Assembly: GCA_032718475.1 (NCBI GenBank)
Contig: JAUCBJ010004360.1
Location: 1 to 33,521, forward strand
Length of the DNA stretch: 33,521 nt
Source of the DNA: Nemertoderma westbladi
Lineage: Eukaryota > Animalia > Xenacoelomorpha
Direction of reading: 5' to 3'
The position numbers and the translations under genes were made by a program. Positions 1 through 30,388 of this stretch are shown one piece after another. A model generated the notes under the pieces. It was not told where the DNA came from, ran no database searches, and saw only the letters and a program-made list of their open reading frames with translations. The first letter of the stretch is position 1, and every line of letters begins with the position of its first letter.

Positions 1-218
1 ACAGTAGGTCCATAAACAGTTAAAAGAAAATAAATTAATAATAAATTACACAAATAAATACACTATAAAATAGATCAGGGTATAGTAAGATAAAACATAA
101 ATACACTAGATATAAAGTATTAAGTAGCACATATAACTATGGTGACTAGAAATCATTTAGCATACCGGTAAATATTTATTACAGATTACATTACATAATA
201 AAATACAATTAAATGCAG

Positions 219-390
219 ATTCACGACGGCGGTTCTCTCGACGATCCAATCATTGGCGAAGGCCTCTTCTGTGGTGATTACGTTCAGCCCCACATTGGCT
301 CATCCTCCAACCTATTGTTCCTGCATTTCCATAGCGACCAGAGCATCTCTCGAGGGGGATTTTTGGCCAGTTATGAAACAGTAGACCCGC
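219..390 (+). CDS. Exon of multi-CUB-domain (cubilin/tolloid-like) protein, C-terminal half of a CUB domain
   Basis: Acceptor tgcag|ATT at 219 and donor C|gttagt at 391. Translation IHDGGSLDDPIIGEGLFCG...LFLHFHSDQSISRGGFLASY matches the CUB consensus (I.DG...FCG...F.SD.S....GF.A.Y). Upstream exons lie outside the window. Confidence 0.85.
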
Positions 391-757
391 GTTAGTCGTT
401 TATTCTTAAATTGTAACAATAATAATTATCCGCATTTAGTATAAACAGCGAGTATCAGCAGAGCTGATCATTCCTTAGTGATGTAATAATAACTTTATAG
501 TTGTAGGCGAGTATTTAACAATGGAAATAGACCTTAAATTTGTAGTTGAATTTCCGGAAAAACTTTTGATTGGTGTATTTTTTTACTAGTTGACAGTATT
601 TCATTAATTTGTATGGAATTAATTTCGCACTACCAAATCACCAGGGCGATATATTTTCAAACTTTACATCACAGTGCGACATTAGTTCTCAGTATGTCCA
701 TAAGACATACATTTACTATATATTTCCAGTATATCCAATCCTGTATGTCATAATGAC

Positions 758-2018
758 TGTTCGCGCTTTCGAAGACCTTTAGCAGTTTAACCTGCCAAAA
801 TTTATATGTCTTTTAGTTAATTAAAACCACTTTAGCATACGACAATAATTTATGCTAATACGCAAAACATTAGCCGAAGTCAGCCCATGCGCGATCATTC
901 ACCCGATGGATCTACACCCGGGAGACTGAATTCGGATGCTTGAATTGGATTATTACAGTGTAAGGTTGCAGTGTATACCTAATGTATTATTCGATAGATA
1001 GTTAATAATTAATCTCTGACAGGTATTATTGGCTTTCGGGAAATATTAACAGTTCCTTTAGGACGTGGCGCTTTATCTATTTAAACAGAACTAGGACTTA
1101 TACTAAACGCAACGATACTGCTTGGGATTGAAGTATAAAGCGTATTCTTTAGGAAATACTTTGTTACCAATCACAATCATACACACTATTCTGCCGACAG
1201 TCAGTACATTTGATCACACATAAAGAGAGCAGTAATTGACTCACGTAGGGTCTGCTAAATAACATTGGATTCAATACACACCACATTAATATAAATCGCA
1301 ATTGTTATATATAGCCGGTCTCTCTAACCTGTAGTGTTATCAAGAAAATTGGGAATTGGGTGATTTATCCGTATTATCCAAATAGCAATATTTCCATCAA
1401 CAAATATTTACAATTAATAACTGACGGTAAAATAACAGTACAAACAATATGATTAATGCAATTAAAAGTATCAAGGTGAGATGAGTGATTTAAGTCAGTG
1501 AGTTCGTTTCGTTAGTTAGGTAACAGTTTATACTTTCGATAATTCAAGCAGTTTACGGTACAGCAGTATCTATCCAAAAATGCCGGTGTTTCTGGCTTAG
1601 ACAGCAATAACAACAAAGTAACAAGAAAAAACAGTAAGACTGAACACTCTCCTTATGATCGACTAAAAGCTACACGTCGACAGGAAAAACCGCCCTGATT
1701 GGCCCAAGCCAAACAAAGAACCACGCGGCCAATGGCTGTTTCCATGTCAGCAACCAGCTGCTAGATGTCGTAATATGAATCATCACGGCTAAGCTGTGAA
1801 AGGTGGTTGGTGCATTACAAGTTTTTTGTCTTACCATGTCCGCTAAAACACGTATATAGCAGAATGATTTTTATGTCCGTTAAAACACCTATAAAGGTAC
1901 CTTGCGGGCGAGGGGAATATATATACAGTTAGAAAACCCTTTTTAGAGTATTCCAGCGCCTGGGGGGGAACTGGCCAGCAAAGGCAAACGTATCAGTTAT
2001 CCCACAAAAGCTTTTACA
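758..2018 (-). repeat. 3' LTR (1261 bp)
   Basis: Matches 12133-13393 at an offset of 11375; I saw only one mismatch (G948 vs T12323). A short purine-rich tract (minus strand GGGAGCGG, 2019-2026) abuts it as a candidate PPT. Confidence 0.95.
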
Positions 2019-2096
2019 CCGCTCCCAGAAAATGGGATTTAAGTCTATAAAATATACAAAATCACAGTTTCTAAAATACAAAAATACTCTAAACAG

Positions 2097-3632
2097 TTAG
2101 TCTTTCTTGCGCGGACGGCGTTTACGCAGTTTTTTGAAGCTAGCAAGAGTCCTTTTCTCTTTGGGGCGAGCCACTTTACTAGGAGGGCTATAACTCCTGG
2201 GTGAAGGGTGCAATATGATTGCATCAGAAGGTATGGGATTGCGATCGGTATATCCGCCGGTCGAAGTACCGGGTTGATGGACATCAACGTCCGGGGAGAG
2301 GGGTCTAACGGCTTTGAGAGCTCGTTTCAAGACAGCCGCTCTTACGGGTCCTTTACGAGTGGTCTGAACGAGGGCCGTGGGTGGACCATAGGCAGTTAGA
2401 AACTTCCTTGGTTTAATGGTTCTTTCTAACTCGCGTTCGCGGGCTCGATACTCGTAAGGCCGTCGATATACCTCTTGTAACTCAGGGTGTGAGTTGACGA
2501 ATAAGTCTCCATAGGCAGGGTCTTGACGGATAAAGTTTATTAAGTTGTAAGACTGGATGTCACTCGGATTAATGCTCCTGAGAAATTTACGCACATATTT
2601 GGTTGAAATACATTCTCCAACGCGCTTCAATAGTTCATAACTTGATAGGCGCGATTTCTGCTCGACGGAGGCAAACAAATATGGATGGAACGCATAAACT
2701 CCTTCATAGGCGCGTCCGGGATAATAGCGATGGCGTGAGTCACAATGCAAATCAGCGTTCGCCTCCCAAGCTCTTATATAACGTAGTACAATCATTTCAT
2801 CTACGCTCTCTAAATCATGGTTAAAGGGACAATCAAAGCTGGCGTGTCCTTTTAATTGACAATGATGGCATTGAGTCATAAATTGGGGGCAGACGGCAAA
2901 AATGTGCAAATTATTAAGCCGACAATATGCACAATAGATTTCCATCGACGGTTGCTCGTGGAAATAGGAACAAAGATCGTTGGTGTCCATAGACGTAATA
3001 TGGTCTCTCGATGAGCACAGCCGACAACGTTGTCGAGAAACATAATTGGCATGGCGATAATCATACGCAGTAAGACACTGTGGACCTTGATACCATTCCA
3101 ATATATAGTCGCTATCGCTACTCCGAGCCGTGGGGGGCTGAATCTCTTCCGATTCTAAACATATGGGTTCATCTTCCCCTTGTATAGTTGAGGTAGGTAT
3201 GGCCGTCTCCTCAAGTGGACCTACCGTCTGAATTTCCACGACAGAATAACCGGTGGGGATCCGAGGTCTTTGGATAACCGAGGAGTGCAGGTTTATTACA
3301 CAGATGTCTCGGAAAATAGCGAATCCAGCGCTATCCAACTTCTCCGCAGCTGAGTCTCTTAAGCTGAGCTTGGTCAAAGCGCGGTCTTTGAATTGGCTAT
3401 CCACGTTGCGAAACGGGGTTAAAAACCGTCGGAAACATTCAAAGCGGATGAATTTTCTATAGTCCGCTTCGCGCGTAAGTTGTTCCTGGGACATCGGCGG
3501 TTCGATATAGCGCCCATCGTCCTCCGTAATAGTCGGATCAGCTTCACCGCATATCAAGCTATCCACAAACGCTTGTAAAGGTAGAGTATATCGCTCTCTA
3601 ATACCAAGGTCATCTTCTATTAATTCCGTCAT
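2097..3632 (-). CDS. Retroelement accessory ORF, 511 aa, three Cys/His zinc-knuckle-like motifs and a basic C-terminus; function unknown
   Basis: Uninterrupted ORF whose ATG has the same AAATATG context as gag. Motifs CRLC-x4-H-x9-C, CAYC-x5-H-x4-C and CHHC-x4-H-x4-C. Ends KKLRKRRPRKKD. Confidence 0.8.
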   Translation of the reverse strand: MTELIEDDLGIRERYTLPLQAFVDSLICGEADPTITEDDGRYIEPPMSQEQLTREADYRKFIRFECFRRFLTPFRNVDSQFKDRALTKLSLRDSAAEKLDSAGFAIFRDICVINLHSSVIQRPRIPTGYSVVEIQTVGPLEETAIPTSTIQGEDEPICLESEEIQPPTARSSDSDYILEWYQGPQCLTAYDYRHANYVSRQRCRLCSSRDHITSMDTNDLCSYFHEQPSMEIYCAYCRLNNLHIFAVCPQFMTQCHHCQLKGHASFDCPFNHDLESVDEMIVLRYIRAWEANADLHCDSRHRYYPGRAYEGVYAFHPYLFASVEQKSRLSSYELLKRVGECISTKYVRKFLRSINPSDIQSYNLINFIRQDPAYGDLFVNSHPELQEVYRRPYEYRARERELERTIKPRKFLTAYGPPTALVQTTRKGPVRAAVLKRALKAVRPLSPDVDVHQPGTSTGGYTDRNPIPSDAIILHPSPRSYSPPSKVARPKEKRTLASFKKLRKRRPRKKD

Positions 3633-4445
3633 ATTTGCTATCTGAGTTTGTTAATATCAATATACGTTAATATTTTAGGTAAGCGGGCGTCGCTTCCTAC
3701 TAGGCCTTTTGCCCCCGGACAGTGGGTTTCTCAGCGCCGATGTACCGCTGTCGCAGTGTTTACGCCAACATGTAGCACAGCACGACAACGATAACCGGCA
3801 CAAGTCCCACCACTGTCCGTCCCAAAGGCTTGAATCCACTTGAGGTTATCTCAGTAGAGTTAGGGCTATTTTACAATTGCGATTAGCTACTGTAAACACA
3901 CTTTAGTAGTAACATTCACCTATAAACGCACAAATTCCATACAATCATTACTTACTGCACACATGCATACCATTTGTCCGTTAGTCAGTGTCTTCCAGAA
4001 TGTTACGTATTTACTATGTATCCTTGGATACTAATAGTGCGCTATGTATACTCTTATGCTACGCAATGGGGCAAGCCTTTTATTGTTCTTTTAACTTGCT
4101 TCTAATTCTAGCGTGGGTGTTGCCATGGTGACATTATGGAAAACTAGCGGTAGAATTAGGGCAATCCTCATGCATACAGATCTGGGATGTTATTTAATAG
4201 TAATTCTTTAATTGTCAATATCCTCTTTATGCATGATTTTATAAATTTTATCGGCTATTGACTATATGCTGGAGATTCTTACACTCTAATACACTCAATA
4301 TGAATCTCCGCTCCCATGATCTATTAATTACTGGAATTTTGGGAATGTTATAAATTGCACAAAATGACAATTTATGAAATTCATTTAAATATGAATTTAA
4401 TTTATTCCCGTGAATTTTATTATTTGATGTTAAATTGACATAAAT

Positions 4446-4717
4446 TTTATTCCAGAGCAAATCTGGGGACATAAGATCCTTAATTCTATGAAATTTGTCT
4501 TTTAAGAGTATCGGTAAGTGCTACGATATCTTAATCGACTAGAATTGTTAACGGATCTGAATTTTAAAGATTTTAATAAATATTAAATTAATATTTAGGA
4601 TGGGCACCAATTTATTCCAGAACTTGTCTGGGGACGTTAACCACTGATTCTAGAATTTGTCTTTCAAGTATATCGGTGGGTGCCACGATATCTTAATCGA
4701 CTAGAATTGCAGATGGT
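4446..4717. repeat. Two diverged ~110-bp direct repeats, each able to fold as stem-loops
   Basis: tttattccaga...tctggggac...attcta...tatcggt...cgatatcttaatcgactagaattg at ~4446-4558 and ~4611-4717. Confidence 0.75.
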
Positions 4718-5250
4718 CAAAAGTTTAACAGATTTATTTGCGATTTACGCTACTGTTAGAGGGACATCACGCTACTATATGTATTATTTGTTATAAGGTA
4801 GAAGAGCAATATCGCACGAAGCAATGTCAGTGTGAAGAGGCAAGTCGTTTCCAAGGTCTACCCAGAGCTTGGTTTAGCCGAGACACGAGGATCTGAACTT
4901 TGCATTCCTAATACTCTGCCTACCAATAATACTTAAATATAGTAGTGGCTTTACCGCACTTTAAGAAGTACTGACATGTCATCTTACTATAGTCTCGCAT
5001 TTATAATATAATACGGACAGTAAGGAAAGAGAAAATAATTACTTCTTGCCGTCGCACTAAATATATATTATAAGTAATTATGTACGTAATAAACACTAAT
5101 ATATTGCACTAATCTACTAACATTCTAAAATAACATTTTACTAAATAAAATTAAATAAAAACGATTATAATAAAGTACATAATAAAGTTCGCATATAAAA
5201 TGTAATAAAATAGATAAAATAATATAGTCATACACCCACTCCATATATAA

Positions 5251-8200
5251 TTACGTTATGGAGTCCCTAGATCTTTGTCGAATTAGGGAAGTGGTCGTAG
5301 GAAGAGTATCCTGCCTTCCATGGTTTCCGGACAGTTTTCGGTCTCTTCCCAGTAAACCTAAGCGACCAGCTGGGCGATTAGGCTGTCGTGTTACTTCCGC
5401 CGCTCCCTTGGCCTGTCTAATCTCCTCAGTGGTAAGATGAGGAGGCCATTCATCTTCTTCTTTACTTAGGGAGTCGGGTCCACCTAACCAGCCGGGAGTA
5501 TCTATCCGTTCTTGAGGAGTTGCTCTTCTGGAATCGATGTCGGCTGGATTAATCGTCCCAAGGCAATGTCTCCATTGATCTACATTGGAGTTAATATCGT
5601 CATTATCTGAGGAGTATGGTGTTCCCTCAGTTGGGTCGTCCACATCACTGCTCTCCACTTCCCCCTTTACTTGGTATACCTGTTGTTGAGGTAATCTCTC
5701 TTTGAGAGTTCTACGGGAAGGGCCAGTGAAGTACCAACCTACTCTAGTTCTTACCGCATAGGTTTGTAGTGGCTGTGGTTGAGCAGGCCGTTTCTCTAAT
5801 GGCTCGAGCGCCTCATGCGCGTTTTGGCCGATGAGTATTTGCACTCCAGGATAATCTGTCTGGAATCGAGGTATCTTAAGATGTTGGACGCTCTCATCTT
5901 CGTCCCAATTATAAAGGTCTGCTTGAGTAGTAGCAAAGTTCTTTATAGCCACCATTTTTACTGACCTTACACCTTGTGTTCCTAACTTATCCTGGGGGGT
6001 GGACAACACACCTACATAGTAATCTGCCGTCAGGGTAGATTTCCAAACCTGCATAATTCCTGACATATTCAATTTAGTCCGGAACTTGGGTTGTCCAGCA
6101 AAGATATCTTCGGCTAGTTCTTGATCGATGAATGTTCCTGTGCTGCCGGAGTCAAGTAGGGCGTTCACTATGTAACTCTTGTTGGGACCATGAACTCGAA
6201 CTTGCACTACAGGAAATTCTCTTATTCCTATGTTGGAAGTTGGAACTTTCCAAGATGGTTGTTTGTCAAAAGGAGTTGGAGTAAACTCGTCAGTGTCCTT
6301 TTCATCCGTAAGTGCTCGATACACTGTGGTATTTATTAGATAACAGGATTCGTTGGCATCGGAGAATTCGTCTGTATAGAATCCTTCCCACTCAGAACCT
6401 TGGTCAGTGTCGTTCACATCACTGAATTGGACATGTAATTCGGGCTCACTTACCTGACTCGGGTTGTCTCGTTCGAACTCACTGTGTAACAAAATGTGAT
6501 GTTTCGCGCCACACTTTGCACACTTTGCGTCGGAGTAACAGGTTCGCCGTTGGTGTCCTGATCTGAGGCAATTATAGCATAACCGCTTATTCCACAGGAC
6601 TGTACGTCTGTCTACAGGGGATTTCTTTAGAAATTCAGCACACGCACTCAAACGGTGAGGCCCGTCGCACAGCGCACATTTTGGTTTGATGTTACTCACC
6701 TTAACTTGGTTAACGTTATGCACTCTCGTTCTTTCTTCGGGCTTTCTTCCGTGAATTCTCTTAGGAGACGTAGGAGGAGTTGTTGTTACCTGTTCTCTCC
6801 TGTCACTGGTTCGAGACTTGTATTTACTTACGTCTTTATAGGTCTTGTTGTCATAGTAAGATTTTGCTGTGTCTTTCCCGCTGTCCTCTTCTTGAGAAGC
6901 TTGGCTTTCGCCGTCGTCAGTATAACACACTGGTATTATCCTTCTCCTAGAATCGGGTTTCTCACTTACCTTATTTTCCGATGTTTTCTCTCTGGCCTGC
7001 CTTATGAGTTGTAATTTTACTTCACTATCTAAGAAAGACATGAGATCAGCCATGGTAGGACTTCGTCGTTGTTGTTCATTCATGTACAACACTTTCTTGT
7101 CCCAGCGTGTACATACTCCACCCTTTGGTAAAGTAGAGACTACGGCTCCAATAACCATGGAACTCTGGTATTCGTGCGACTTACCTAACCAGTCCAGTTG
7201 TCTACAGATCTCTTGTATTTCATCGGAAAATTCTATAATCCCACTACTAAGGAAGTGTCGGGGGGCTACCAATTTTGTATACAGATACTTAGCTATGTTA
7301 TCTTTATTACCATACCTGATGTTTAATGTATCCCAAACTTGTCTTAATCCATCTGGATGTCCAATAAACTTTAACGCCATTAACTTGGGAGGTCCTTCCA
7401 AACACTTGATGAGGAATCTAAGTTTCTCTCCGTTAGATAGTACAGAGTTCTGTATGCTATCTTTGTAATATTCGTTGAAAGGTAACCATTTCATCTCATC
7501 CCCATTGAATTTGACGATCTCTCCCACTTTGACCGCTTGGCGGGCTTCTGTTCTAGCCATCTGACGCGTAAAGCTTTCTTGGGCCATCGTGTTATTTAAT
7601 ATCGAATTATCGGTATACAAATTTCTCGGATCATTATCAGGTCTATAGGGAATATCATTAATAACAGGTCTATAATCACCCTTAATAGGGTTTGCTATAG
7701 GAGTTTCAACTTCACTAGCAGTATAGATGCGTGTAGGCTCCACACCTTGCGCATGTGATACTTCAGACCTAACGGGTTGACTCAATGTTACCGGGGGCAT
7801 TGGTATGCCTTTTTGTATATTGACTAATTTGTCGCGTTCTAGCGCGATACTTTGCTGCACTTCTTGCAACTCTGCTCTACTTTCCCTCACCGTTCCCTTA
7901 AGTTGGTGGACAGTCTCCTGCATCTGTCCTAGCAGGAGATTCATCCCCCGCCGTCCCTCTTCCACCCACTCAACCGCCGAAGCGGGAGTCGCCAACATAG
8001 TAGCGGGCTGACGCGGGACGACGGGAGACAAATTATTGATTTCTCTCTCTGCTATCTGGACAGGGGTATTTGCATGGACTGTTCCACCGGGTACAGGTAG
8101 TGTAGTGCTATGTAAAGGGAATTTAGAGTTAAGCTCTGGAAGTGCAGGGGTCTCTAGCATAGAAGTGACTTTGGGAATTACAGGCCTAATGATTTCAGGT

Positions 8201-9867
8201 TCATCGACTATAGTAGGGAGTCTTTTGACCTGGATAAATTGTTCTATAGGTTCTGCACTACCTAAATCTGTGCTAGTTAGCTGTCTTTTAACAGCTGGGG
8301 GCAAATCAGGCAATTTGCGACGGTAATATGTTTTTCTACGCCTACTTAGATGAGATCTATTTCCTCCGCCTTCAGGATCGGTAGTATCACCTTCCTCCGA
8401 GGATGTGTATCCTTGGCGCTTGGGAGTAGATTTTCTCATCATCTGCATTTGATTAGCAGTGAACTGTTTATTTATACTGTCTTGTGTCTCTTGCAGATTT
8501 TCCAACTCCAGTTGGGTAGTCTGCTCAGATGCTCTCCTTTCTACTTCTGCCACTGCCTTCGCTGCCTTTCTTTCGGCTTCTGCTTCTTTTCTTTTGGCTT
8601 CTGCTTCTTTTCTTTCTGCTTCTGCTTCCTTTCTTTCGGCTTCTGCATCTGCCATAACCGCCGCCATATCCGCCGCCTTTTGTTCCTCTATCCTTCTTTT
8701 CTTTATTTGTTCTTCTCGGACTCTAGTGAGGCGGAGTTTTTCATCACATTCAGCTTGGTTTGCAGCTAACATTTCGGCATCGATTGAGTCTAACACAAGC
8801 TTGGTTCCTTCACTATTAGGGGAAAGTCCATGTAGCCGTCTCCTCAACTCTTCGTCTCCTAGGAATCGCTGATAGTCTGACAAATAAATGTCGATAGCGT
8901 CTCTAGTTCGCGGTTTCTCGGCGGCCTCTTCACTTTCCTCTTGAGCAAGGGTGACATCAGTTTGTTCGGAGACATCAGTCGGTTCCTCATAGATTGATCT
9001 CTCAGCCAGCTGGGATTTCCACGGGGCTGTTTCCTGTACTTTGAGATCTACTCGATGTAGCCAAGTTTTGACAGCAACCTGCAGCGACGTGTCCTGTCTT
9101 CTTTTGGAAGTTTCCTCAAAGGCTGAGAGGATTAGTCGAATGCGTAGGGTTCTTTCGCGTATTTGATATAGCAGTTCTTCCTGCTCTTGAGGTCCGTGAG
9201 GTTGTCGAAACAGTTGTTCCTCCAATCGCTCCAAGGATCCGAAGAATCCCTGCACATATCCTGCTGCCGACCTCTTCCAAACAGCTGGATCCATTGTATC
9301 TTTTGCCACTCCCATCCTGTGTATATCTTCCCAAGTAGCCTCGGACATATCAAACGGAAGTCCGAGTCCGGGAAAGTTCCATTGTGATTCAACAATAGAT
9401 CTCAATTCTTCCCTGGCGTATCCCGCGTAATTATCTTGGGTCGCTTGCTTATTCTTCGCCCAGTCGGTTTGATGTTCTTCCACCGCAATGAGTATAGTAG
9501 TCAGCACTGCAGCAGGAAGAGTAAGAAGGGGGTCCGAGTAGACTGTATCAGCCATCTGCACTCCATGTTCGGGAGTCAACTCTACAGTATCCGAACTGCT
9601 GGAGCTATCAGGTCTCTGGGAAGTAGGTTCTTGACCAAGATGTTGCTGCGATAGGACAGCTGCCTCTTGGTCCCGTTTTACCTGTGCCCGAGTGCCTATG
9701 ATGGACCTATGGTGGACTAGCCTAGGGTCTGATACTACTGGAGGGATGACCTTTTTTACAGTAGGAGGTGAGCCGAACTTCTCTTTTATTCGCTCCACAC
9801 TCCTATCTGAATCACAGATAGTGGTCTCGATCAGACTGTCCGACAGGTTTTGCTGAGTGTCAGACAT
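5251..9867 (-). CDS. BEL/Pao gag-protease polyprotein (1538 aa) ending in an RNase H C-terminal remnant
   Basis: Gag core (KFNGDEMKWLPF...LSNGEKLRFLIKCLEGPP, DUF1759-like). BEL-type triple knuckle CALCDGPHRLSAC / CYNCLRSGHQRRTC / CAKCGAKHHILLH (~6490-6680). Aspartic protease LLDSGS (~6142-6159) and AVRTRVGWYFTGP. Then QWRH..NPAD..SR..WLGGP..L...WP (~5445-5577). N-terminal EAERK coiled-coil repeats. Confidence 0.92.
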   Translation of the reverse strand: MSDTQQNLSDSLIETTICDSDRSVERIKEKFGSPPTVKKVIPPVVSDPRLVHHRSIIGTRAQVKRDQEAAVLSQQHLGQEPTSQRPDSSSSSDTVELTPEHGVQMADTVYSDPLLTLPAAVLTTILIAVEEHQTDWAKNKQATQDNYAGYAREELRSIVESQWNFPGLGLPFDMSEATWEDIHRMGVAKDTMDPAVWKRSAAGYVQGFFGSLERLEEQLFRQPHGPQEQEELLYQIRERTLRIRLILSAFEETSKRRQDTSLQVAVKTWLHRVDLKVQETAPWKSQLAERSIYEEPTDVSEQTDVTLAQEESEEAAEKPRTRDAIDIYLSDYQRFLGDEELRRRLHGLSPNSEGTKLVLDSIDAEMLAANQAECDEKLRLTRVREEQIKKRRIEEQKAADMAAVMADAEAERKEAEAERKEAEAKRKEAEAERKAAKAVAEVERRASEQTTQLELENLQETQDSINKQFTANQMQMMRKSTPKRQGYTSSEEGDTTDPEGGGNRSHLSRRRKTYYRRKLPDLPPAVKRQLTSTDLGSAEPIEQFIQVKRLPTIVDEPEIIRPVIPKVTSMLETPALPELNSKFPLHSTTLPVPGGTVHANTPVQIAEREINNLSPVVPRQPATMLATPASAVEWVEEGRRGMNLLLGQMQETVHQLKGTVRESRAELQEVQQSIALERDKLVNIQKGIPMPPVTLSQPVRSEVSHAQGVEPTRIYTASEVETPIANPIKGDYRPVINDIPYRPDNDPRNLYTDNSILNNTMAQESFTRQMARTEARQAVKVGEIVKFNGDEMKWLPFNEYYKDSIQNSVLSNGEKLRFLIKCLEGPPKLMALKFIGHPDGLRQVWDTLNIRYGNKDNIAKYLYTKLVAPRHFLSSGIIEFSDEIQEICRQLDWLGKSHEYQSSMVIGAVVSTLPKGGVCTRWDKKVLYMNEQQRRSPTMADLMSFLDSEVKLQLIRQAREKTSENKVSEKPDSRRRIIPVCYTDDGESQASQEEDSGKDTAKSYYDNKTYKDVSKYKSRTSDRREQVTTTPPTSPKRIHGRKPEERTRVHNVNQVKVSNIKPKCALCDGPHRLSACAEFLKKSPVDRRTVLWNKRLCYNCLRSGHQRRTCYSDAKCAKCGAKHHILLHSEFERDNPSQVSEPELHVQFSDVNDTDQGSEWEGFYTDEFSDANESCYLINTTVYRALTDEKDTDEFTPTPFDKQPSWKVPTSNIGIREFPVVQVRVHGPNKSYIVNALLDSGSTGTFIDQELAEDIFAGQPKFRTKLNMSGIMQVWKSTLTADYYVGVLSTPQDKLGTQGVRSVKMVAIKNFATTQADLYNWDEDESVQHLKIPRFQTDYPGVQILIGQNAHEALEPLEKRPAQPQPLQTYAVRTRVGWYFTGPSRRTLKERLPQQQVYQVKGEVESSDVDDPTEGTPYSSDNDDINSNVDQWRHCLGTINPADIDSRRATPQERIDTPGWLGGPDSLSKEEDEWPPHLTTEEIRQAKGAAEVTRQPNRPAGRLGLLGRDRKLSGNHGRQDTLPTTTSLIRQRSRDSIT

Positions 9868-10004
9868 ATTTAGTTATACAGTTGAATGTCTACTACTATA
9901 ATTTCAGTTAAAGCAAATCTAGTAATTCAGTATGACCACAAGCCTAGCGATTTATTACCGGTACCGTTACTCAGGTGGAACGTGATATATATACAATATA
10001 TTAG

Positions 10005-10228
10005 AATACCGGTATGCTTATAATATATAAGTATTATTACAGACTAGATTTGTCACAGAGTACCGGTATATAATTTTAGCACAAATATATATATATATAT
10101 AGTAGGCCTATAATGAATACCGGTATACAGCTTACACTTATAGTATATAAGTATAATTCTGGACTAGAATTAATTACAGGGTACCGGTATGATTTCAGCT
10201 CAAATTTATAGAAATAAATATAATAAGC
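10005..10228. repeat. Two diverged ~110-bp repeats in the element 5' leader
   Basis: ataccggtat...tatataagtat...gactaga...gtaccggtat...ttagc.caaat occurs at ~10006 and ~10117. Confidence 0.55.
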
Positions 10229-11211
10229 CTATGGTAAGTACCGGTATGTCAATTATTTTTAGAATAATTGAATTTCTGAATATTTTGGGGTTACTTCGTT
10301 ACTTTAACTTACTTTATTACCGTTATTTAAGCAGTAGTCCAACTGACAGTGAGACCTAGTTGTTGTATGGCAGGCCTACTATTTATAAATCGTTTGAGTT
10401 GATTTATAATAGATATATACCCGTTTAAAAGGGGTTTTGACAATATTTGAAATAAATGTTATTATTTCTGGGGGTCACTACACAGAAGCTGAACGCCTCT
10501 CAGTGAAGTGCTATTTATTTGACACTAAAACTGATGATTCTAATTTACCTAAGTTACTTAATACTACGAATTACTTACGATACGGGTGAGATTAATTCTC
10601 TAATTAAACACAACAAAATATTACGGACGAAATTTTTAGGGTAATTTTACAGGAAGTCTACAAACCAGTCTAACAAAGGGTTAGATTTCTGGCTATTACA
10701 AAGGACAGGGTACTACGGTATTTAAATAATAAGTAGTAGTAAATATATTGTACTGTCCAGATAGGAAAATACCACCGCCTGACGACCTATAACCGTATCG
10801 CTATAGGTACTACGTTATGTATCACGGATTGTTCCTACCCAGAAGCTAATAGAGCTAACGAATGTGCCTATCAACCACTTTACAACACAAATATACTGCC
10901 TACACTAATTACTTCGGAAGGCACTGTACTCTAAACCCTAAATTAGGTACAAGTACCGGTATAACAAATAATCAGTAGTTAAATATACTTGAACAGTTAA
11001 AAGAACCACGGCATCTGCTGGAGTGACCGAAGCACAAAGTCGTCAGTCTTTACCTACGCCAAGCAGCCCTGATGTAGTACCGGGGTTAGTTTAACTATAA
11101 CGGTATGTATAACAAGCACAATTACTGTAGGAATAAACTTGGGGACATGAATGTTGCGAATAATCGCATAAACTCTGAATAATAAATATTACGCTACCCG
11201 TACAGAATACT

Positions 11212-11745
11212 CAAACAAATACAAACCAAACGCTGGCAGACTACTATCAAGCCTAAACAAACTACTGTATGTGCAGATTCTGAAACTGTTAGTTAGTATG
11301 CGTGCTAACACGGTAGTACGACTTACTCTTTAAGAGGGGATTGACCTTACAGTGTTGACTGCCCCAACTTACTAACGGCACTTGATCAGACCAACTCTAC
11401 ACACGCAGCAATCCCTTCAGACCTAAAAATAGCTAGACAACAATCCAGCCTACAAATATTTGAGTAATAACTATTACGGTACCTGAACAGACCACACAAA
11501 CAAACACAGGCCAAAACACTGGCAGACTACGATCAAGCCTAAATAAACTACGGTATATGCAGACTCTGAAACTGTTAGTTAGTATGCGTGCTAACACGGT
11601 AGTACGACTTACTCTTTAAGAGGGGATTGACCTTACAATTATGACTGCCCCAACTTACTAACGGCACTTTATCAGACAAACTCTACACACGCCGTAATCT
11701 CTCCAAACCCAACCACAGTCAGACAGCAGCTCAGCCTACAATTAT
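11212..11745. repeat. Tandem duplication (~286-bp period) in the element 5' leader
   Basis: ctggcagactac...gttagttagtatgcgtgctaacacggtagtacgacttactctttaagaggggattgacc...actctacacacgc at ~11233 and ~11519. Confidence 0.85.
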
Positions 11746-12116
11746 CTGAACAATCTGAGCAGGGTCACACGCCTTCTGCTCAATATTAGCCTACTAGTAA
11801 ATAAAACTGACAGAAATAGACCTAAGTAAAATCCCAATAAAAACCAGGCGTCCCCGATTTAATATCGAGACCTACCGGTATACAATAATCAAAATCGAAT
11901 AATACTAATGTACTTATACAGCAGTACCGGTACCGGTGATGACAGTTAGGCCTACTGACCCACAGAAGCACCGGTTCAGTTTTACCAGTCACTACGGTAT
12001 TTTGCAACCCTATTGCCTACTGCAATAAGATTGTAAACCGTTACTGTTCTCCAGAACAGTATTAAACTGTATTTAATGCCTACACTTGCAACCTTATTGC
12101 CTACTGCAATAAGATT

Positions 12117-12132
12117 AAGTATAAACTGTTAC
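12117..12132 (-). promoter_or_regulatory. Primer-binding-site position; complementary to LTR sequence 12895-12910 rather than to a tRNA 3' end
   Basis: The minus strand reads GTAACAGTTTATACTT immediately after the LTR's CA. It has no TGG and is a 16/16 reverse complement of the LTR segment. Confidence 0.7.
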
Positions 12133-13393
12133 TGTTCGCGCTTTCGAAGACCTTTAGCAGTTTAACCTGCCAAAATTTATATGTCTTTTAGTTAATTAAA
12201 ACCACTTTAGCATACGACAATAATTTATGCTAATACGCAAAACATTAGCCGAAGTCAGCCCATGCGCGATCATTCACCCGATGGATCTACACCCGGGAGA
12301 CTGAATTCGGATGCTTGAATTGTATTATTACAGTGTAAGGTTGCAGTGTATACCTAATGTATTATTCGATAGATAGTTAATAATTAATCTCTGACAGGTA
12401 TTATTGGCTTTCGGGAAATATTAACAGTTCCTTTAGGACGTGGCGCTTTATCTATTTAAACAGAACTAGGACTTATACTAAACGCAACGATACTGCTTGG
12501 GATTGAAGTATAAAGCGTATTCTTTAGGAAATACTTTGTTACCAATCACAATCATACACACTATTCTGCCGACAGTCAGTACATTTGATCACACATAAAG
12601 AGAGCAGTAATTGACTCACGTAGGGTCTGCTAAATAACATTGGATTCAATACACACCACATTAATATAAATCGCAATTGTTATATATAGCCGGTCTCTCT
12701 AACCTGTAGTGTTATCAAGAAAATTGGGAATTGGGTGATTTATCCGTATTATCCAAATAGCAATATTTCCATCAACAAATATTTACAATTAATAACTGAC
12801 GGTAAAATAACAGTACAAACAATATGATTAATGCAATTAAAAGTATCAAGGTGAGATGAGTGATTTAAGTCAGTGAGTTCGTTTCGTTAGTTAGGTAACA
12901 GTTTATACTTTCGATAATTCAAGCAGTTTACGGTACAGCAGTATCTATCCAAAAATGCCGGTGTTTCTGGCTTAGACAGCAATAACAACAAAGTAACAAG
13001 AAAAAACAGTAAGACTGAACACTCTCCTTATGATCGACTAAAAGCTACACGTCGACAGGAAAAACCGCCCTGATTGGCCCAAGCCAAACAAAGAACCACG
13101 CGGCCAATGGCTGTTTCCATGTCAGCAACCAGCTGCTAGATGTCGTAATATGAATCATCACGGCTAAGCTGTGAAAGGTGGTTGGTGCATTACAAGTTTT
13201 TTGTCTTACCATGTCCGCTAAAACACGTATATAGCAGAATGATTTTTATGTCCGTTAAAACACCTATAAAGGTACCTTGCGGGCGAGGGGAATATATATA
13301 CAGTTAGAAAACCCTTTTTAGAGTATTCCAGCGCCTGGGGGGGAACTGGCCAGCAAAGGCAAACGTATCAGTTATCCCACAAAAGCTTTTACA
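12133..13393 (-). repeat. 5' LTR (1261 bp)
   Basis: Copy of 758-2018, upstream of gag on the minus strand. Contains a GC box (ccgccc ~13065), CCAAT boxes (~13073 and ~13104) and a minus-strand TCAGT initiator-like motif (~13014-13018). Confidence 0.95.
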
Positions 13394-13511
13394 ATGACGT
13401 ATACTGTAATGAACAATGACGTACTGTATATTTATTATTTTTATGAACAATGACGTGCTGTTAATATTAATATAGTACATGATATTGTTAATTTTACATG
13501 TCTATTTTTAG

Positions 13512-13740
13512 AGTGTGGCGGTATATTTTACAATGATTCTGGAACTATCCTTTCCCCTGGTTACCCTTTCGAGCGATACCCACACAATGTCACATGTTAT
13601 TGGAAGATTGAGGCACCGCTGGACAACATTGTTCGAATAAAATTTAATTTATTCGAGTTGGAACCGCATCCTAACTGTAACTACGATTTCGTAGAGATTT
13701 GGTACAACTACACCAAAGCTCCAGCTCAACTGGCGGACAA
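13512..13740 (+). CDS. Exon of CUB-domain gene (N-terminal part of a CUB domain)
   Basis: tttttag|AG acceptor whose phase matches the previous exon. Reads QCGGIFYNDSGTILSPGYPFERYPHNVTCYWKIEAP...FELEPHPNCNYDFVEIW...ADK, ending at an AA|gtaagt donor. Not listed in the ORF track. Confidence 0.92.
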
Positions 13741-14869
13741 GTAAGTTTGCGGTACAACTACACAAACGCTCCAGCTCAACTGGCAGACAAGTAAGTTTCT
13801 GGTACAACTACACCAATGCTATGGCTCAACTGGTGGACAAGTAAGTTTGTGGTGCAACTACACCAATGCTATGGCTCAACTGGTGGACAAGTAAGTTTGT
13901 GGTGCAACTACACCAATGCTATGGCTCAACTGGTGGACAAATAAGTTTGTGGTGCAACTACACCAATGCTATGGCTCAACTGGTGGACAAGTAAGTTTGT
14001 GGTACAACTACACCAATGCTACAGCTCAACTGGCAGACAAGTAAGTTTCTGGTACAACTACACAAACGCTCCAGCTCAACTGGCAGACAAGTAAGTTTCT
14101 GGTACAACTACACCAATGCTATGGCTCAACTGGTGGACAAGTAAGTTTGTGGTGCAACTACACCAATGCTATGGCTCAACTGGTGGACAAGTAAGTTTGT
14201 GGTACAACTACACCAATGCTACAGCTCAACTGGTGGACAAGTAAGTTTCTGGTACAACTACACCAATGCTATGGCTCAACTGGTGGACAAGTAAGTTTCT
14301 GGTACAACTACACCAATGCTATGGCTCAACTGGTGGACAAGTAAGTTTGTGGTACAACTACACCAATGCTACAGCTCAACTGGTGGACAAGTAAGTTTCT
14401 GGTACAACTACACCAATGCTATGGCTCAACTGGTGGACAAGTAAGTTTTGTGGTACAACTACACCAATGCTACAGCTCAACTGGTGGACAAGTAAGTTTG
14501 TGGTACAACTACACCAATGCTACAGCTCAAGTGGCAGACAAGTAAGTTTGTGATACAACTACACCAATGCTACAGCTCAACTGGTGGACAAGTAAGTTTC
14601 TGGTACAACTACACCAATGCTACAGCTCATCTGGTGGACAAGTAAGTTTCTGGAACAACTACACCAATGCTACGGCTCAACTGATGGACGAGTAAGTTTC
14701 TGGTACAACTACACCAATGCTACAGCTCATCTGGTGGACAAGTAAGTTTGTGGTACAACTACACCAATGCTACAGCTCAACTGGCAGACAAGTAAGTTTG
14801 TGGTACAACTACACCAAAGCTACAGCTCAACTTGTGGACAAGTAAGTTTCTGGTACAACTACACCAATG
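13700..14869 (+). repeat. 50-bp minisatellite, ~23.4 copies, spanning the exon end and splice donor
   Basis: Unit tggtacaactacaccaatgcta(c/t)(a/g)gctcaactgg(t/c)(g/a)gacaagtaagttt(c/g). GTAAGT recurs every 50 nt from 13741 to 14842, with a 1-nt insertion near 14449. Confidence 0.97.
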
Positions 14870-15029
14870 TTGCAAACAACATTATGGGATAGTTGCGTCG
14901 TTACAAACTCCCAAGGTTGTTCCCTTAAATAATCTTCACGTTGCCATTAGTTACAGTAGTAAACAAGTTGGTACAGCGAGATAATATCTCTGAACCAATA
15001 TATCTGTATAAATTACAATGTTTTTCTAG

Positions 15030-19885: not shown

Positions 19886-22411
19886 ATGTTGGCCCACAAA
19901 CTGGACGGAGGTGAAGCACGGACTGATGATATTCGTTGCCATGGCGACAATGGAACTGATTTCAGAGCGATGTTGCTTCGTCCTGAGGTTCAAACAGGTT
20001 TGGAGAGGAGTGGCTTTGTAACTCCGTCCCCTATACAGTTGCAAGCTATTCCGCTAGGTCGTTGCGGACTAGATCTTATAATACAAGCGAAATCAGGCAC
20101 TGGGAAGACCTGTGTGTTTACTGTGGTTGCCTTGGAAATGATAGACTTGGAATGTAAACGACCTCAGGTGCTCGTATTAGCTCCTACAAGAGAAATTGCA
20201 GTTCAGATACATGAGGTGATATCATCGGTTGGGAGGTCTCTTACAGGACTACATTGCCATGTGTTTATTGGTGGTTTATCTGTTACAGACGATAAAAAGA
20301 GATTGAAACAGTGCCAGATTGCCATCGGCAGTCCAGGCAGAATCCGCCAACTCATTGAAATGAAAGCTCTATCTACGCAAAATATTCGATTATTCGTCAT
20401 TGATGAAGCTGATAAACTTCTAGAAGATGCAATGCAAGAGCAAGTCAATTGGATATTTTCTGCTTTGCCTGGGAAGAAGCAAGTGCTAGCACTTTCAGCG
20501 ACTTATACCGAAACTATGACTCAACATATAACTCGTTACATGGCATGTCCCCATCACGTTCGTCTAGACTCTAAACGACCAATTCTAAAAGGATTAGCGC
20601 AATACTACTCTAAAGTGCCTCTTCATCCATCGTTCCCACATCGATCCTTCGAAGCCAAGATGGAGTTATTGTTGTCCATTTTAAATAGCGCGGCATTCCA
20701 CCAGTGTCTGGTGTTTAGCAACTCCCAGCTGAGAGCTGAAGACGTCTGTCAGAGGCTGCTGGAGAAAGGTTGGCCCACAGTGTATATATCTGGTAATCTT
20801 CCACAACATCAGCGACTCCAAGCAATGAGCAAACTCAAGCAGTACCAATGTCGGGTCCTGGTCTCAACAGATTTGTCGTCCCGTGGTATAGATGCAGATA
20901 AAGTTAACCTTGTGGTCAACTTGGACGTTCCAAGTGGGTATGACACTTACCTCCACAGGATTGGGCGTGCTGGTCGTTTTGGCACCTTTGGGGCCGCTGT
21001 TACCATAGCGAACGAAGGCAGCGAATGGGAGGTTTTGGAGAGGGTAGCAAGTCGCCACTGTCTCCCACTGGTTTGTCTACCATCGCCTATTCCATCTAAC
21101 TTGGTAGAGCTGAAAACTGAAGGGAAATACGGCTTTGCTGATCATAATGATGATTCAGTGAATAAAGAGGAAGAACCAATTGATCATAAAGAAGTTCTAA
21201 CAACTGGTACTAAAAATCAAATACAAGGCAAATCCCAATTTATTTCGGATAGTCTTGAAAATAAAGTATCTAAAAAAACAAAGTCAAAGAATTATCTCCC
21301 AAGAGGTGTGCAAAAGCAATTAGGAACTCTTTTTGATGTGGGGACGCAGACAGATGAAGCGGTTGTTAATGTTAGGTCCCAATGCGACATCAAATCTCCG
21401 CTGTCTAGAAAATCTATTGAATTCTCATGTATACCCGAGTATCGTGAAACTTTTGTTGACTTCCTTGTGCGTAGTCGCATCCAACTTCCCCCTCTGTATG
21501 ACAGATTCGCCCCACTGCCTGTCAGCGTACCGAATCCTTGTCCGTTTAAAGGCGATTATGTGGAGTCCTTGAGAGAACTTGGATTGGATGTTCGAAATTG
21601 TGATGATGTATTTATTGATGGTAATGTTATAGAAGGTTCGATCAATGTCAAGGATGTGGTTGCTGATGATAAAGATGATTCAGTTGAGAGTGATGATGCT
21701 TGCGATAAAGTGTATCTCACAGATGAGTTCATGGGTTCATCTTATAATAAAGGTGGTCCTGATACGAATGCAGATATCATAGACAGCTCTGCTAATCTAG
21801 ATGTTGTTTCCCCTCAAACTGATATTATTTGTTCTAGAAGTCCAGCCGACATACTCTGTAATTCTAGAAGCACCTCACAATCGATATCTGTAGGATTAGA
21901 GGCGACGGGCGACCAAGCAGTGTCAACTAACCATTTAGTCGAACGAGCAATCCCAGGTCATCATGTATCAACCGACCCAGATCCAACAAACCCACTACAA
22001 GTGCCAAACCCAACACACACTGTAGGATTATCAAAGCCAACCAACCCAGTAGCAGTGGCACATCCAAGGAAGATGAAACATAAAAATATTAGTCTATTCA
22101 ACCCTTGGATTCCAGTTCCTAAAGAGGAGAAGATAACGGACTCAACAAGCAATGTTTTATGGCAGCAGACCAGTTGCGTAGTAACAACTCGTGATTGCCT
22201 GGAATCGATTAACCAATCAAAACACCGTATCAACTCTACCCCTTCGGTTTCAACGACTTCGCCTAGTTTATCATCGTCATCGGACGAGTGCGATAGTTCT
22301 TCTTCTGAATCATCTACCTCTTGCGATTGCGAATATGTTAGTAACCAATTGCAAAGCAATACGCACCACTTTGCCAAATTACGTAGTAACCCATATTATT
22401 ACTTTAATTGA
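19886..22411 (+). CDS. DDX20: DEAD-box RNA helicase DDX20 / Gemin3, single coding exon, 841 aa from first ATG
   Basis: Q motif GFVTPSPIQLQAIPLGRCGLDLIIQAKSGTGKT (DDX20-typical), PTREIA, DEAD, SAT and HRIGRAGRFG, followed by a long low-complexity C-terminus. The ORF track start at 19871 is TTG; the first ATG is 19886. Confidence 0.92.
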   Translation: MLAHKLDGGEARTDDIRCHGDNGTDFRAMLLRPEVQTGLERSGFVTPSPIQLQAIPLGRCGLDLIIQAKSGTGKTCVFTVVALEMIDLECKRPQVLVLAPTREIAVQIHEVISSVGRSLTGLHCHVFIGGLSVTDDKKRLKQCQIAIGSPGRIRQLIEMKALSTQNIRLFVIDEADKLLEDAMQEQVNWIFSALPGKKQVLALSATYTETMTQHITRYMACPHHVRLDSKRPILKGLAQYYSKVPLHPSFPHRSFEAKMELLLSILNSAAFHQCLVFSNSQLRAEDVCQRLLEKGWPTVYISGNLPQHQRLQAMSKLKQYQCRVLVSTDLSSRGIDADKVNLVVNLDVPSGYDTYLHRIGRAGRFGTFGAAVTIANEGSEWEVLERVASRHCLPLVCLPSPIPSNLVELKTEGKYGFADHNDDSVNKEEEPIDHKEVLTTGTKNQIQGKSQFISDSLENKVSKKTKSKNYLPRGVQKQLGTLFDVGTQTDEAVVNVRSQCDIKSPLSRKSIEFSCIPEYRETFVDFLVRSRIQLPPLYDRFAPLPVSVPNPCPFKGDYVESLRELGLDVRNCDDVFIDGNVIEGSINVKDVVADDKDDSVESDDACDKVYLTDEFMGSSYNKGGPDTNADIIDSSANLDVVSPQTDIICSRSPADILCNSRSTSQSISVGLEATGDQAVSTNHLVERAIPGHHVSTDPDPTNPLQVPNPTHTVGLSKPTNPVAVAHPRKMKHKNISLFNPWIPVPKEEKITDSTSNVLWQQTSCVVTTRDCLESINQSKHRINSTPSVSTTSPSLSSSSDECDSSSSESSTSCDCEYVSNQLQSNTHHFAKLRSNPYYYFN

Positions 22412-22929: not shown

Positions 22930-24800
22930 CAGGCAGTACTTTGTTAATTTGCAGGAGCTAATAAACCAACAGGTTGATGCCATCAATGATGCTGACGACA
23001 GCAGGCAATCATCCCAGGCATGGAGATCGATCAACTTGCTTGCTGGTCGAAAAAGCCAACCAACCACCAAGGTTAAGGCTGAATCATCAGCCGATTGCCT
23101 CAATGGTTGGAAGGCCCACTTTGAAAAGCTCCTCAATAATGACATGGTATTGCCTGGTAACTTTATAGAAGTAAAAGTGTCTGAGTCTGTACTCCCAGAT
23201 ATTCCTATTGGTGATATCTCCTTTGCAGACGTGAAGGCTGCTGCAAAGACCATTAAGACCAATCGTGCCAGTGGAGTAGATGGTGTTCACCCTGAGGTCT
23301 TTAAAATACCTGAGTGTTTAAAGCTCATCTATCCCATCATAGTAGACATGTACCGAACAACAAGAGTCCCACAAGAAATGAAAACAAATAAGTTGGTGCC
23401 AGTTCCCAAGAAGGGCATCCTAACACTCTATGGTTCTTTTCGGGGAATCTCATTGATCTCGATTGCTGTAAAGCTATACAATAGAATTCTATTAAATCGC
23501 ATCAGGGATCCCATTGAGAGACTGCTCCGTGGAAATCAGAATGGGTTCCGTAAAGGTCGTGGGACCATGGAGCCCATTTTGGCACTTAGAAGGATAATTG
23601 AAGAGTTATCAAAAAAGAAAGACAGGCATCTGGCTGTTCTCTTTGTTGACTTCTTCAACTCTCACTCACGTATGTTCAGCATACTTTCATTATATGGGAT
23701 TCCTGATGAAATTATTGCTGCTTTCAGATCTAGTATACGATGGTAAATCGACTAACATTTGTGTCTACTGTTGACCGCCGTCACACAGTACCATTTGAAG
23801 TGTTATCGGGCGTCCTCCAGGGAGACACACTTGCACCATTCTTGTTCATAATTGTTGTTGACTATGTTCTACGCATGTCCTTAGATCATCATAATGATGA
23901 TGAGGTGATGATAACTCCACCTACTGGCTCCAGAAGTCGAGGAAATCCTGCCAAGTACCTAACTGATCTAGACTTTGCTGATGACTTAGGAGTACTCTCA
24001 GAATCACTAGAGGGAGCCCAACGGCTCCTCGGCTCATAGAACATGCTGCTTCTAGTGTTGGTCTTTTTATTAACTCCAGAAAGACCAAAATTCTGACAGT
24101 TAACTTTGAAAGTCCTCAGCAAGTCTCTGGTCGGATGAGCATAAGCTCAAAGGATGGTATGCTTGAGCATGTGGACGACTTCTGTTACCTGGGATCATGG
24201 ATCCAGAAGTCAGGTGAGGACCTTCGAATACGTAAGGGAAAGGCATGGGCAGCCTTGAATATGCTTTCCAGGATTTGGAAGTCACCGAGAATTAATCGGA
24301 AACTTAAGGTCCGATTATTTAGAGCAGCAGTAGTTCCAGTACTCCTCTACGGGAGTCCATGCTGGGCTCTAACTGCTGAGGACACCAAATCTCTGGATGG
24401 CACATTCACAAGAATGCTACGCCGGTTTCATTGTGTCAAGTACAATGCACATATCTCCAACCAGACACTATATAACATTGGAGGTGTCTCATTGGTTCCC
24501 CCAAGGTTGACACTAGAACAAAATCGCCTCCGCTTTGCAGGACATTGCTTTCGCCGTGAGGACCAGCCAGTGCATAATCTTGTACTTTGGCAGCCTCATG
24601 GAGTGAATAAACATGGTGGACAGCCCATGACTTTCTTGAGACGCATCTTAAAGGACACTGGCCTTAAAGATGCGGATGATCTAGCAAATGTCATGGGTGA
24701 TAGGGAGTTGTGGCGGTGCAATTTTGTTGACAAGCCGGCACAGCATTCTTAAAAATGCAGCTGCAATGCAGCATGCCGATCCTAGTAGTAGTCAGTAGTT
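22930..24800 (+). mobile_element. Degenerate, 5'-truncated RTE-like non-LTR retrotransposon (RT in three frameshifted pieces)
   Basis: ORFs 22949-23746, 23740-24039 and 24135-24752 give QNGFRKGRGT, GVLQGDTLAPFLF, LDFADDL, FCYLGS and RLRFAGHCFR. A (TAG)n tail lies at ~24783-24800. The 5' boundary is approximate. Confidence 0.85.
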
Positions 24801-25321: not shown

Positions 25322-26070
25322 GGGGGCTCCGTGTACGAGGTGGAGGGGGGGGGTTCCGTGTACGACGACGAAAGGGGGGTTCCGTGTACGAGGGCGGGGG
25401 GGGGGGGGGTCCGTGTACGACGGCGGAGGGAGGTTTCCATGTACTACGACGGAGGGGGGTTTCCATGTACGACGACGGAGGGGGGGGGGTTCCGAGTACG
25501 ACGACGGAGGGGGGTTTCTATGTACGACGACGGAGGGGGGGGAGGTTCCGAGTAAGATGACGGAGGGGGGTTTCCGTGTACGACGACGGAGGGGGGGGGG
25601 GGGTTCCGTGTACGACGACGGAGGGGGGGGGGGGGGGGTTCCGAGTACGACGACGGAGGGGGGTTTCCGTGTACGACGACGGAGGGGGGTTTCCATGTAC
25701 GACGACGGAGGGGGGTTTCCATGTACGACGACGGAGGGGGGGGGGGGTTCCGAGTACGACGACGGAGGGGGGTTTCCATGTACGACGACGGAGGGGGGGG
25801 AGGTTCCGAGTAAGATGACGGAGGGGGGTTTCCGTGTACGACGACGGAGGGGGGGGGGGGGGGTTCCGTGTACGACGACGGAGGGGGGGGGGGGGGGGGT
25901 TCCGAGTACGACGACGACGGAGGGGGGTTTCCGTGTACGACGACGGAGGGGGGTTTCCATGTACGACGACGGAGGGGGGGGGGGGTTCCGAGTACGACGA
26001 CGGAGGGGGGGGGGGGGGGGGTTCCGTGTACGACGACGGAGGGGGGGTTCCGTGTACGACGACGGAGGGG
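25322..26070. repeat. G-rich satellite, unit ttccg(t/a)gtacgacgacgga-G(5-16), left block
   Basis: Directly visible tandem repeat with a variable poly-G spacer. Confidence 0.95.
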
Positions 26071-30344: not shown

Positions 30345-30388
30345 AGGGAGGTCATCGCCAACCAGCTAACATAACACATGATCAATAT

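Follow-up and report, generated by a model that had tools for sequence, protein, structure and literature searches.

CERV, encoded by the Cer1 retrotransposon of C. elegans, comprises 517 aa, is nuclear and Cys-rich, and is needed for the export of Cer1 RNA; its C-terminal half derives from a frame formerly annotated as env, which is joined to gag exons by splicing, and it has a C4-type loop and no reported homology outside nematodes (PMC10309623). In the BEL/Pao superfamily, the third genes covered by the accessible text of the sources are envelopes (PMC8742986; PMC3118150, PMC554778, PMC13524379), such as the env-like genes of roo, Tas and Cer7 and the mosquito chuvirus-type glycoprotein (PMC8742986, PMC554778, PMC13524379). 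LTR elements of bdelloid rotifers carry a non-env ORF3 in the env slot, encoding a DEDDy exonuclease or a GDSL esterase, and TelKA2n among them is non-autonomous and has kept its third ORF after the loss of most of pol (PMC5408684). In addition, the plant Copia/Gypsy lineages SIRE, Athila and Tat/Ogre display orphan-like extra ORFs of at least 250 codons after pol, most of them with no known domain (PMC6317226).

The window analysed here, the whole 33,521-nt stretch of a contig from Nemertoderma westbladi (JAUCBJ010004360.1), contains a BEL/Pao-derived LTR element of 12.6 kb on the minus strand, in which the env position is occupied by a 511-aa frame, hereafter ORF2. The frame shares slot, sense and superfamily with the BEL/Pao env-like genes, but these encode membrane glycoproteins, whereas ORF2 is devoid of a membrane segment and displays zinc knuckles and a basic tail. 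The rotifer ORF3s differ from ORF2 in having clear homologues and in being enzymes or membrane proteins, and the main text of that paper holds no occurrence of 'zinc' or 'CCHC' (PMC5408684). The resemblance to CERV includes (i) a length of about 510-520 aa, (ii) a location between pol and the 3' LTR once read as env, (iii) a Cys-rich composition, (iv) a basic nuclear signal, and (v) splicing to gag exons, shown for CERV and predicted for ORF2; the differences comprise a C4-type loop and a G-protein-like domain in CERV versus three CCHC-type knuckles in ORF2, and an intact Gypsy/Ty3 element, Cer1, versus a BEL derivative without reverse transcriptase (RT) and integrase (PMC10309623). Set side by side by description only, CERV is the closest analogue of ORF2. 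As an accessory frame that takes the env slot without encoding an envelope, ORF2 is of a known kind, with Gypsy-type precedents, and new for BEL/Pao within the literature searched: no paper on an additional BEL/Pao frame, with zinc knuckles or otherwise, was found by title or abstract, where Repbase or subscription journals may annotate such frames, and the main text of the annelid and mollusc BEL surveys, as far as accessible, contains neither 'zinc' nor 'CCHC' (PMC8556966, PMC6238403, PMC8220671). Further sources cover host-transposon conflict (PMC6719617, PMC13269885), sORF2 (PMC11952523) and LTR structure (PMC3601003).

Architecture and classification of the element

The features of the element are collected in Table 1. 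The insertion is very recent, because the two LTRs differ at one base, preserve their TG...CA ends and are flanked by ATGAC on both sides. According to the ICTV profile, Belpaoviridae comprise genomes of 4.2-10 kb with LTRs of 0.2-1.2 kb, primed by tRNA-Arg or tRNA-Gly (PMC8742986). Of six features taken from that profile, the element displays (i) TG...CA LTRs with a target-site duplication, (ii) a BEL-type Gag and (iii) an aspartic protease after Gag, and departs from the family in the remaining three: RT/RNase H/integrase, a tRNA-Arg or tRNA-Gly primer site, and the size range, at 12.6 kb with LTRs of 1.26 kb. Judged by its sequence, the element is a non-autonomous BEL/Pao derivative and not a complete Belpaoviridae member.

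Table 1. Coordinates of the element's features in the window
Feature	Position	Strand	Description
5' LTR	12133..13393	minus	1261 bp, TG...CA ends
LTR segment complementary to primer position	12895..12910	minus	same sequence in 3' LTR at 1520-1535
Primer-binding position	12117..12132	minus	16 nt perfectly complementary to LTR 12910-12895
Non-coding leader	9868..12116	minus	2.25 kb; 286-nt tandem duplication plus shorter repeats
ORF1	5251..9867	minus	1538 aa; Gag-protease joined in frame to RNase H tail
Four AG/GTRAGT donor-consensus motifs in gag	6446..7186	minus	GT at 7184, 6969, 6699, 6453
RNase H region remnant (Pao, C-terminal end)	5434..5592	minus	53 codons, ORF1 frame
Spacer between ORF1 and ORF2	3633..5250	minus	non-coding, AT-rich; duplication spaced 162 nt
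Tandem candidate acceptors	3638..3644	minus	CAG 3644-3642, TAG 3640-3638; before ORF2 ATG
ORF2	2097..3632	minus	511 aa, env position; ATG start, same sense as ORF1
Three zinc-knuckle-like Cys/His motifs	2829..3026	minus	aa 203-268
Conserved region after knuckles	2373..2807	minus	aa 276-420, predicted helices; matches no known family; low-confidence model
Basic C-terminal tail	2100..2135	minus	candidate nuclear localisation or RNA-binding motif, function inferred
Purine-rich tract	2019..2026	minus	short, adjoining 3' LTR
3' LTR	758..2018	minus	1261 bp, single mismatch vs 5' LTR
Target-site duplication ATGAC	753..757; second copy 13394-13398		5 bp

The element is flanked by two exons of a host gene on the plus strand, to which it is antisense; both exons encode CUB domains, at 219-389 (Pfam E 1.5e-6) and 13511-13738 (E 1.2e-15). 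The latter exon continues into tandem repeats of 50 bp (13596-14996), and the repeat unit contains a copy of the exon end together with a donor-like GTAAGT. Further along the window, 19886-22411 (plus) holds a single-exon 841-aa DEAD-box helicase ORF, which we take to resemble DDX20/Gemin3, and the stretches 23144-24752, 26236-27893 and 29223-33181 are presumably pieces of non-LTR retrotransposons with RT-like frames, with 29223-30344 assumed to be a PHD-like ORF1 preceding the RT-bearing ORF. G-rich arrays with a 26-30-nt unit and a strong GC skew (25324-26073 and 28042-28831) flank a LINE fragment.

The ORF1 product and the missing enzymes

ORF1 comprises, in order, a long N-terminal extension, a BEL-type Gag, a protease and an RNase H tail. 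Pfam places DUF1759 at aa 787-915 (E 4e-12); the Gag region displays three Cys/His boxes with invariant Cys/His columns, and the protease carries an LLDSGS motif, its Asp_protease_2 match (E 0.012) lying below the Pfam cut-off. The nine database relatives of ORF1 are all BEL/Pao-type proteins, seven of them with Pao (PF05380). By tblastn these nine cover Gag and protease down to position 5719, and four of them (P0003, P0004, P0007, P0009) also match the RNase H remnant at E 5e-9 to 2e-3; the same nine queries match no RT or integrase anywhere in 1-13500, and these BEL/Pao-type relatives detect no integrase remnant in the spacer between ORF1 and ORF2. Since RT and integrase matches are missing and the RNase H tail is in frame, the element reads as an internally deleted BEL derivative. 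The initial annotation had considered pol lost, which holds for RT and integrase and does not hold for the protease and the C-terminal piece of RNase H, both retained in ORF1. The element would have to borrow RT and integrase from elsewhere.

The joint between protease and RNase H tail (5434-5720, minus) is an acidic linker, and about 60 further open codons follow the tail. The N-terminal extension, 770 aa before DUF1759 (7561-9867, minus), is without a Pfam match and includes a Glu/Ala/Lys-rich repeat with a 21-nt period at 8553-8650. Two of the relatives, P0001 and P0005, are BEL-type proteins with Gag and protease for which an RT or integrase domain is not listed; enzyme-less Gag-protease BEL families may thus exist elsewhere too.

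Priming

A TGG tRNA primer site is absent next to the 5' LTR end. The position is taken by the 16-nt complement to the LTR, which starts 0 nt from the LTR and has a length reached by 1 of 10075 internal positions; the resulting helix closes in both the minimum-energy and the centroid fold, the whole region folding no better than shuffles (z -0.49). Tf1/Sushi, Tcn1 and TAR share the absence of a tRNA site and a sequence adjacent to the 5' LTR that is complementary to an LTR segment, although they belong to Gypsy and Copia lineages and the present element is BEL-derived; a published screen for self-priming looks for at least 10 nt complementary to the LTR, 0-5 nt after the 5' LTR (PMC6317226), a range that includes the 16 nt at 0 nt found here. 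The sequence suggests a candidate case of Tf1-type self-priming in a BEL-derived element, a combination for which no BEL/Pao paper was found by title or abstract. One contig from run X3 displays other letters at the junction of primer position and LTR.

Predicted structure of the ORF2 protein

The initial annotation described ORF2 as an intact 511-aa frame in the sense of gag with three clustered Cys/His motifs, an acidic N-terminus and a basic tail, and as something other than an envelope, all of which the analysis bears out. The stop codon lies 78 nt before the 3' LTR, and among 1000 shuffles of 2019-5250 the longest stop-free stretch is 185 codons. The knuckles comprise (i) C203-X2-C-X4-H-X9-C221, (ii) C234-X2-C-X5-H-X4-C248 and (iii) C255-X2-C-X4-H-X4-C268, the last one being the canonical CX2CX4HX4C; three relaxed motifs occur in 0 of 20000 protein shuffles, and one canonical motif in 5 of 20000. 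Residues 1-67 hold 16 D/E versus 7 K/R, and the last 12 residues hold 9 K/R, a basicity reached by 3 of 5000 shuffles. The tail had also been called RS/P-rich: it is indeed Pro-rich, but hardly RS-rich, with three SP and one RS/SR in residues 421-511, its RS character being confined to a single SPRSYSPP stretch.

Hydropathy over 19 residues peaks at 1.33, short of what a membrane helix requires, the usual threshold being about 1.6; together with the acidic N-terminus and the lack of Pfam, PDB or protein-collection matches to a viral fusogen, this value agrees with a protein that is not an envelope. Patterns resembling export signals occur at chance level (4 versus 3.5 expected). Single-sequence AlphaFold models have a mean pLDDT of 36.6 and 44.1 and are uninformative, and Foldseek, run with the latter model, too poor to inform, returned nothing at E 0.001.

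Relatives of ORF2

No homologue of ORF2 was found among proteins of near length in a set of 5.8 billion, nor for aa 175-420 among the shorter proteins of that set, and phmmer against 1.84 billion representatives gave 0 matches at E 0.001; the exact look-up and the searches of viral, metagenome and prokaryote contigs were likewise empty, and a Gag-protease bait recovered no relative with context from metagenome contigs. These collections hold few animal transposon ORFs, and the blank is no proof of an orphan. The absence of a described family is supported in that Pfam returns zf-CCHC_3 only, below its cut-off (E 0.0015), and the PDB and protein searches give no family match. Two further candidates were dismissed, namely the PDB matches of the whole protein (E about 2) and a Phage_integr_3 match (E 0.11).

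The knuckle region matches yeast Air2 best in the PDB (E 0.019) and shares with it the spacing of knuckles 2-3, CX2CX5HX4C-P-linker-CX2CX4HX4C-P; this match is followed by the retroelement nucleocapsids Copia VLP (E 0.59) and NCp10 (E 0.69). Air1/Air2 (ZCCHC7) comprise five knuckles and an IWRxY motif, whereas ORF2 has three knuckles, no IWRxY and no likeness outside the knuckles, and knuckles 2-4 of Air2 bind RNA (PMC3384339). In the Atlas, the nearest clusters to aa 175-420 are eukaryotic multi-knuckle proteins (DUF8363, zf-CCHC, AIR2-like) with scores of 0.76-0.86, all under 0.9 and hence a lead only, and aa 272-420 give no usable match. These cellular neighbours and the top rank of Air2 would fit a host zinc-knuckle gene of the Air/ZCCHC7 or CNBP/GIS2-like type, captured as a passenger or to the benefit of the host. 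Such an origin is very unlikely, since a conserved host gene should match in large protein sets and none did, and since the synonymous-biased divergence to about 83% identity among element-like copies, set out below, is unlike that of a passenger.

Copies and selection

The element is found in 7 of the 12 listed runs, from four studies and three organism labels. In each of four runs, contigs at 80-100% identity, numbering 690 to 96138 per run, cover all 30 bins of 759-12133, among them the spacer in place of pol; 291 contigs from run X4 and 2804 from run X3 align within 2090-3900. Many diverged copies and thousands of variant contigs from four studies exclude a host gene captured in this copy only.

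Differences within ORF2 were drawn from the best-supported subset, 40 of 329 over 2090-3900 plus 4 more from 40 of 2006 over the whole element, in which several runs of differences stem from single diverged contigs. Among these 44, 31 are synonymous and 33 fall at third positions, versus a synonymous fraction of 0.22-0.29 expected under neutrality (P about 2e-9 at 0.27), pN/pS is 0.12-0.16, and none introduces a stop or changes a knuckle ligand; for comparison, 8 of the 15 differences shown for ORF1 are synonymous. These values exclude neutral evolution of the copies, and purifying selection on ORF2 among diverged copies is supported. Diverged copies align over aa 288-405 and, at about 83% identity, over aa 288-463, whereas the 80% match of one diverged 1627-nt contig is confined to aa 231-269, that is knuckles 2 and 3; contigs as such cannot prove that every diverged piece sits in an element of the same structure.

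Among the 12 length differences shown of 233 over the whole element, none falls in ORF1 or ORF2, which together make up 54% of the element (P about 9e-5). Over 2090-3900, where 12 of 13 are shown, six lie in ORF2, four of them in compensating pairs. In run X4 a single base is inserted at 2822 and another is missing at 3129, each time in one contig of high depth, and some abundant copies may be broken in ORF2. These two possible frameshifts and the env-typical position are what favours reading ORF2 as a frame that is open by chance or evolves neutrally, or as a decayed envelope; this account is extremely improbable, the length, the knuckles and the synonymous excess being far beyond chance, and membrane segments and envelope family matches being absent. 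The depth of X4, a run labelled 'DNA?', correlates with that of X3 at a Spearman coefficient of 0.01, compared with 0.95 for X1 and 0.70 for X5, and shows a step near 3800-3900 and a fall within the LTR near 1500; X4 may be an RNA run, a lead only, as contig depth cannot rank the parts of a gene.

Candidate splice signals

The CAG that the initial annotation had placed 9 nt upstream of the ORF2 ATG, as compatible with a spliced message, is present and in frame, followed by three open codons in the frame of ORF2, with a TAG 4 nt beyond it; its pyrimidine tract is poor, and it stands outside the 14 best AG sites of 3600-5300. Two contigs from X3 and one from X4 depart from the window sequence exactly at 3641, so that similarity between subfamilies begins there and the CAG is not universal. 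A joint between 3641 and 3782 in X4 was rejected as a splice, since the letters between are not known and X3 contigs also leave at 3641. A Cys-rich frame of 56 codons at 3845-3678 was likewise rejected as a gene, since the part examined contains no ATG start and the copies often differ in length there. Separately, an acceptor-like site with a branch-point-like motif lies at 3889-3910 (minus), near the X4 depth step; the ATG that comes after it, at 3771, is out of frame.

On the donor side, the motif AG/GTRAGT occurs four times on the sense strand, all within 6453-7184, and not once on the antisense strand, versus 0.46 expected over the element from base composition (P 1e-3) and 0.27 within ORF1 given the encoded protein and its codon usage (P 3e-5), P values that are optimistic because the motif was picked after a broader scan. 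In the order of Table 1, the donors are in phases 1, 0, 0 and 0; the phase-0 donors follow codons 966, 1056 and 1138, at the borders of capsid and nucleocapsid, and fit the CAG, and the phase-1 donor fits the TAG. The donors likely reside inside gag rather than in the leader, to judge from these motifs. No joint from a donor to 3641 is present among the 15 shown of 83 contig joints.

The same arrangement would suit a different product, in which ORF2 serves as an alternative C-terminus of Gag, fused by splicing after the capsid (966) or before (1056) or after (1138) the nucleocapsid boxes, and acts as a second nucleocapsid or chaperone module in RNA packaging or annealing, possibly of the self-priming helix, or in the transport of particles to the nucleus. 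Three phase-0 donors at Gag domain borders, the uninterrupted phase-0 codons between the CAG and ORF2, the match of the phase-1 donor to the TAG, and the nucleocapsids among the knuckle matches all speak for such fusions. They are nonetheless unlikely: ORF2 has its own ATG in the AAATATG context that it shares with the gag start, the joints shown include none of this kind, the donor motif was chosen post hoc, and ORF2 is not copied from the element's own nucleocapsid. The idea of ORF2 as a duplicate of the element's own Gag/nucleocapsid was itself rejected on that last ground (best BLASTP E 0.24).

Proposed role of ORF2

The ORF2 product is very probably an accessory factor of one sort or another that the element encodes, that binds nucleic acid and that is under selection. 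More specifically, and by analogy, its product may be a CERV- or Rev-like nuclear RNA-binding accessory protein, a reading to which we give a probability of roughly 0.45. ORF2 displays the env slot, the absence of membrane binding and the basic nuclear signal of such factors, by sequence only. Against the reading, none of the searches gave a homologue that would anchor a function, the export-signal-like patterns do not exceed chance, and the knuckle matches are weak and compatible with any nucleic-acid chaperone. In the proposed mechanism, (i) a spliced message, predicted from the donor and acceptor motifs, would yield the ORF2 protein; (ii) the basic tail would take it into the nucleus; (iii) the zinc knuckles, as their spacing and the likeness to Air2 suggest, would bind the unspliced RNA of the family; (iv) the bound RNA would be exported, by analogy with known export factors, and packaged; and (v) a helper would supply RT and integrase, while the family keeps its own Gag and its RNA-specific factor. 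The genomic RNA has to leave the nucleus unspliced, and its four perfect donor motifs in gag pose a problem of the kind that Rev-type factors solve. For a gene to be selected in a family that lacks enzymes, it must favour the RNA of that family, as a sequence-specific RNA factor does, and enzymes borrowed from a helper combined with such a benefit would explain why ORF1 and ORF2 were kept and the enzymes lost.

The high copy number and the very recent insertion of an element with no enzymes of its own could also reflect a family-specific anti-silencing factor, acting on element chromatin or nascent RNA against piRNA or exosome surveillance. In plants, VANC shields VANDAL DNA transposons. The combination of acidic N-terminus, knuckles and basic tail, the tandem repeats of the leader as possible binding sites, and a knuckle spacing like that of Air2 from the TRAMP surveillance complex are compatible with this activity, which is quite unlikely all the same. 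Counter-defence genes are often fast-evolving, in contrast to the strong purifying selection on ORF2, and the IWRxY motif of Air2 is missing. A review of 2019 was aware of no factor of this sort that counters the piRNA or KRAB pathways (PMC6719617). Equally doubtful is a combined version, in which Gag exons spliced to a knuckle module like that of Air would form a family-specific counter-silencing or RNA-licensing protein. Beyond the CERV- or Rev-like reading and the alternatives of Gag fusion, anti-silencing, host capture and chance frame, the remaining probability falls to some other role.

Significance

The replication of BEL/Pao elements is poorly understood (ICTV profile, PMC8742986). A conserved knuckle gene that outlasts the enzymes of its own element points to a step that the family supplies for itself, be it RNA export, packaging or escape from silencing, and the same element provides a BEL/Pao candidate on which self-priming can be put to the test. 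If ORF2 encodes an export factor, it would represent a further independent invention of the Rev/CERV type, in a third LTR lineage. If it acts against silencing, it would fill a gap named in the 2019 review, which knows of no transposon-encoded anti-piRNA factor (PMC6719617); and if the combined counter-silencing reading is true, a self-priming BEL family with no enzymes of its own, relying on a helper for RT and integrase, would escape the host's RNA surveillance and multiply to high copy number.
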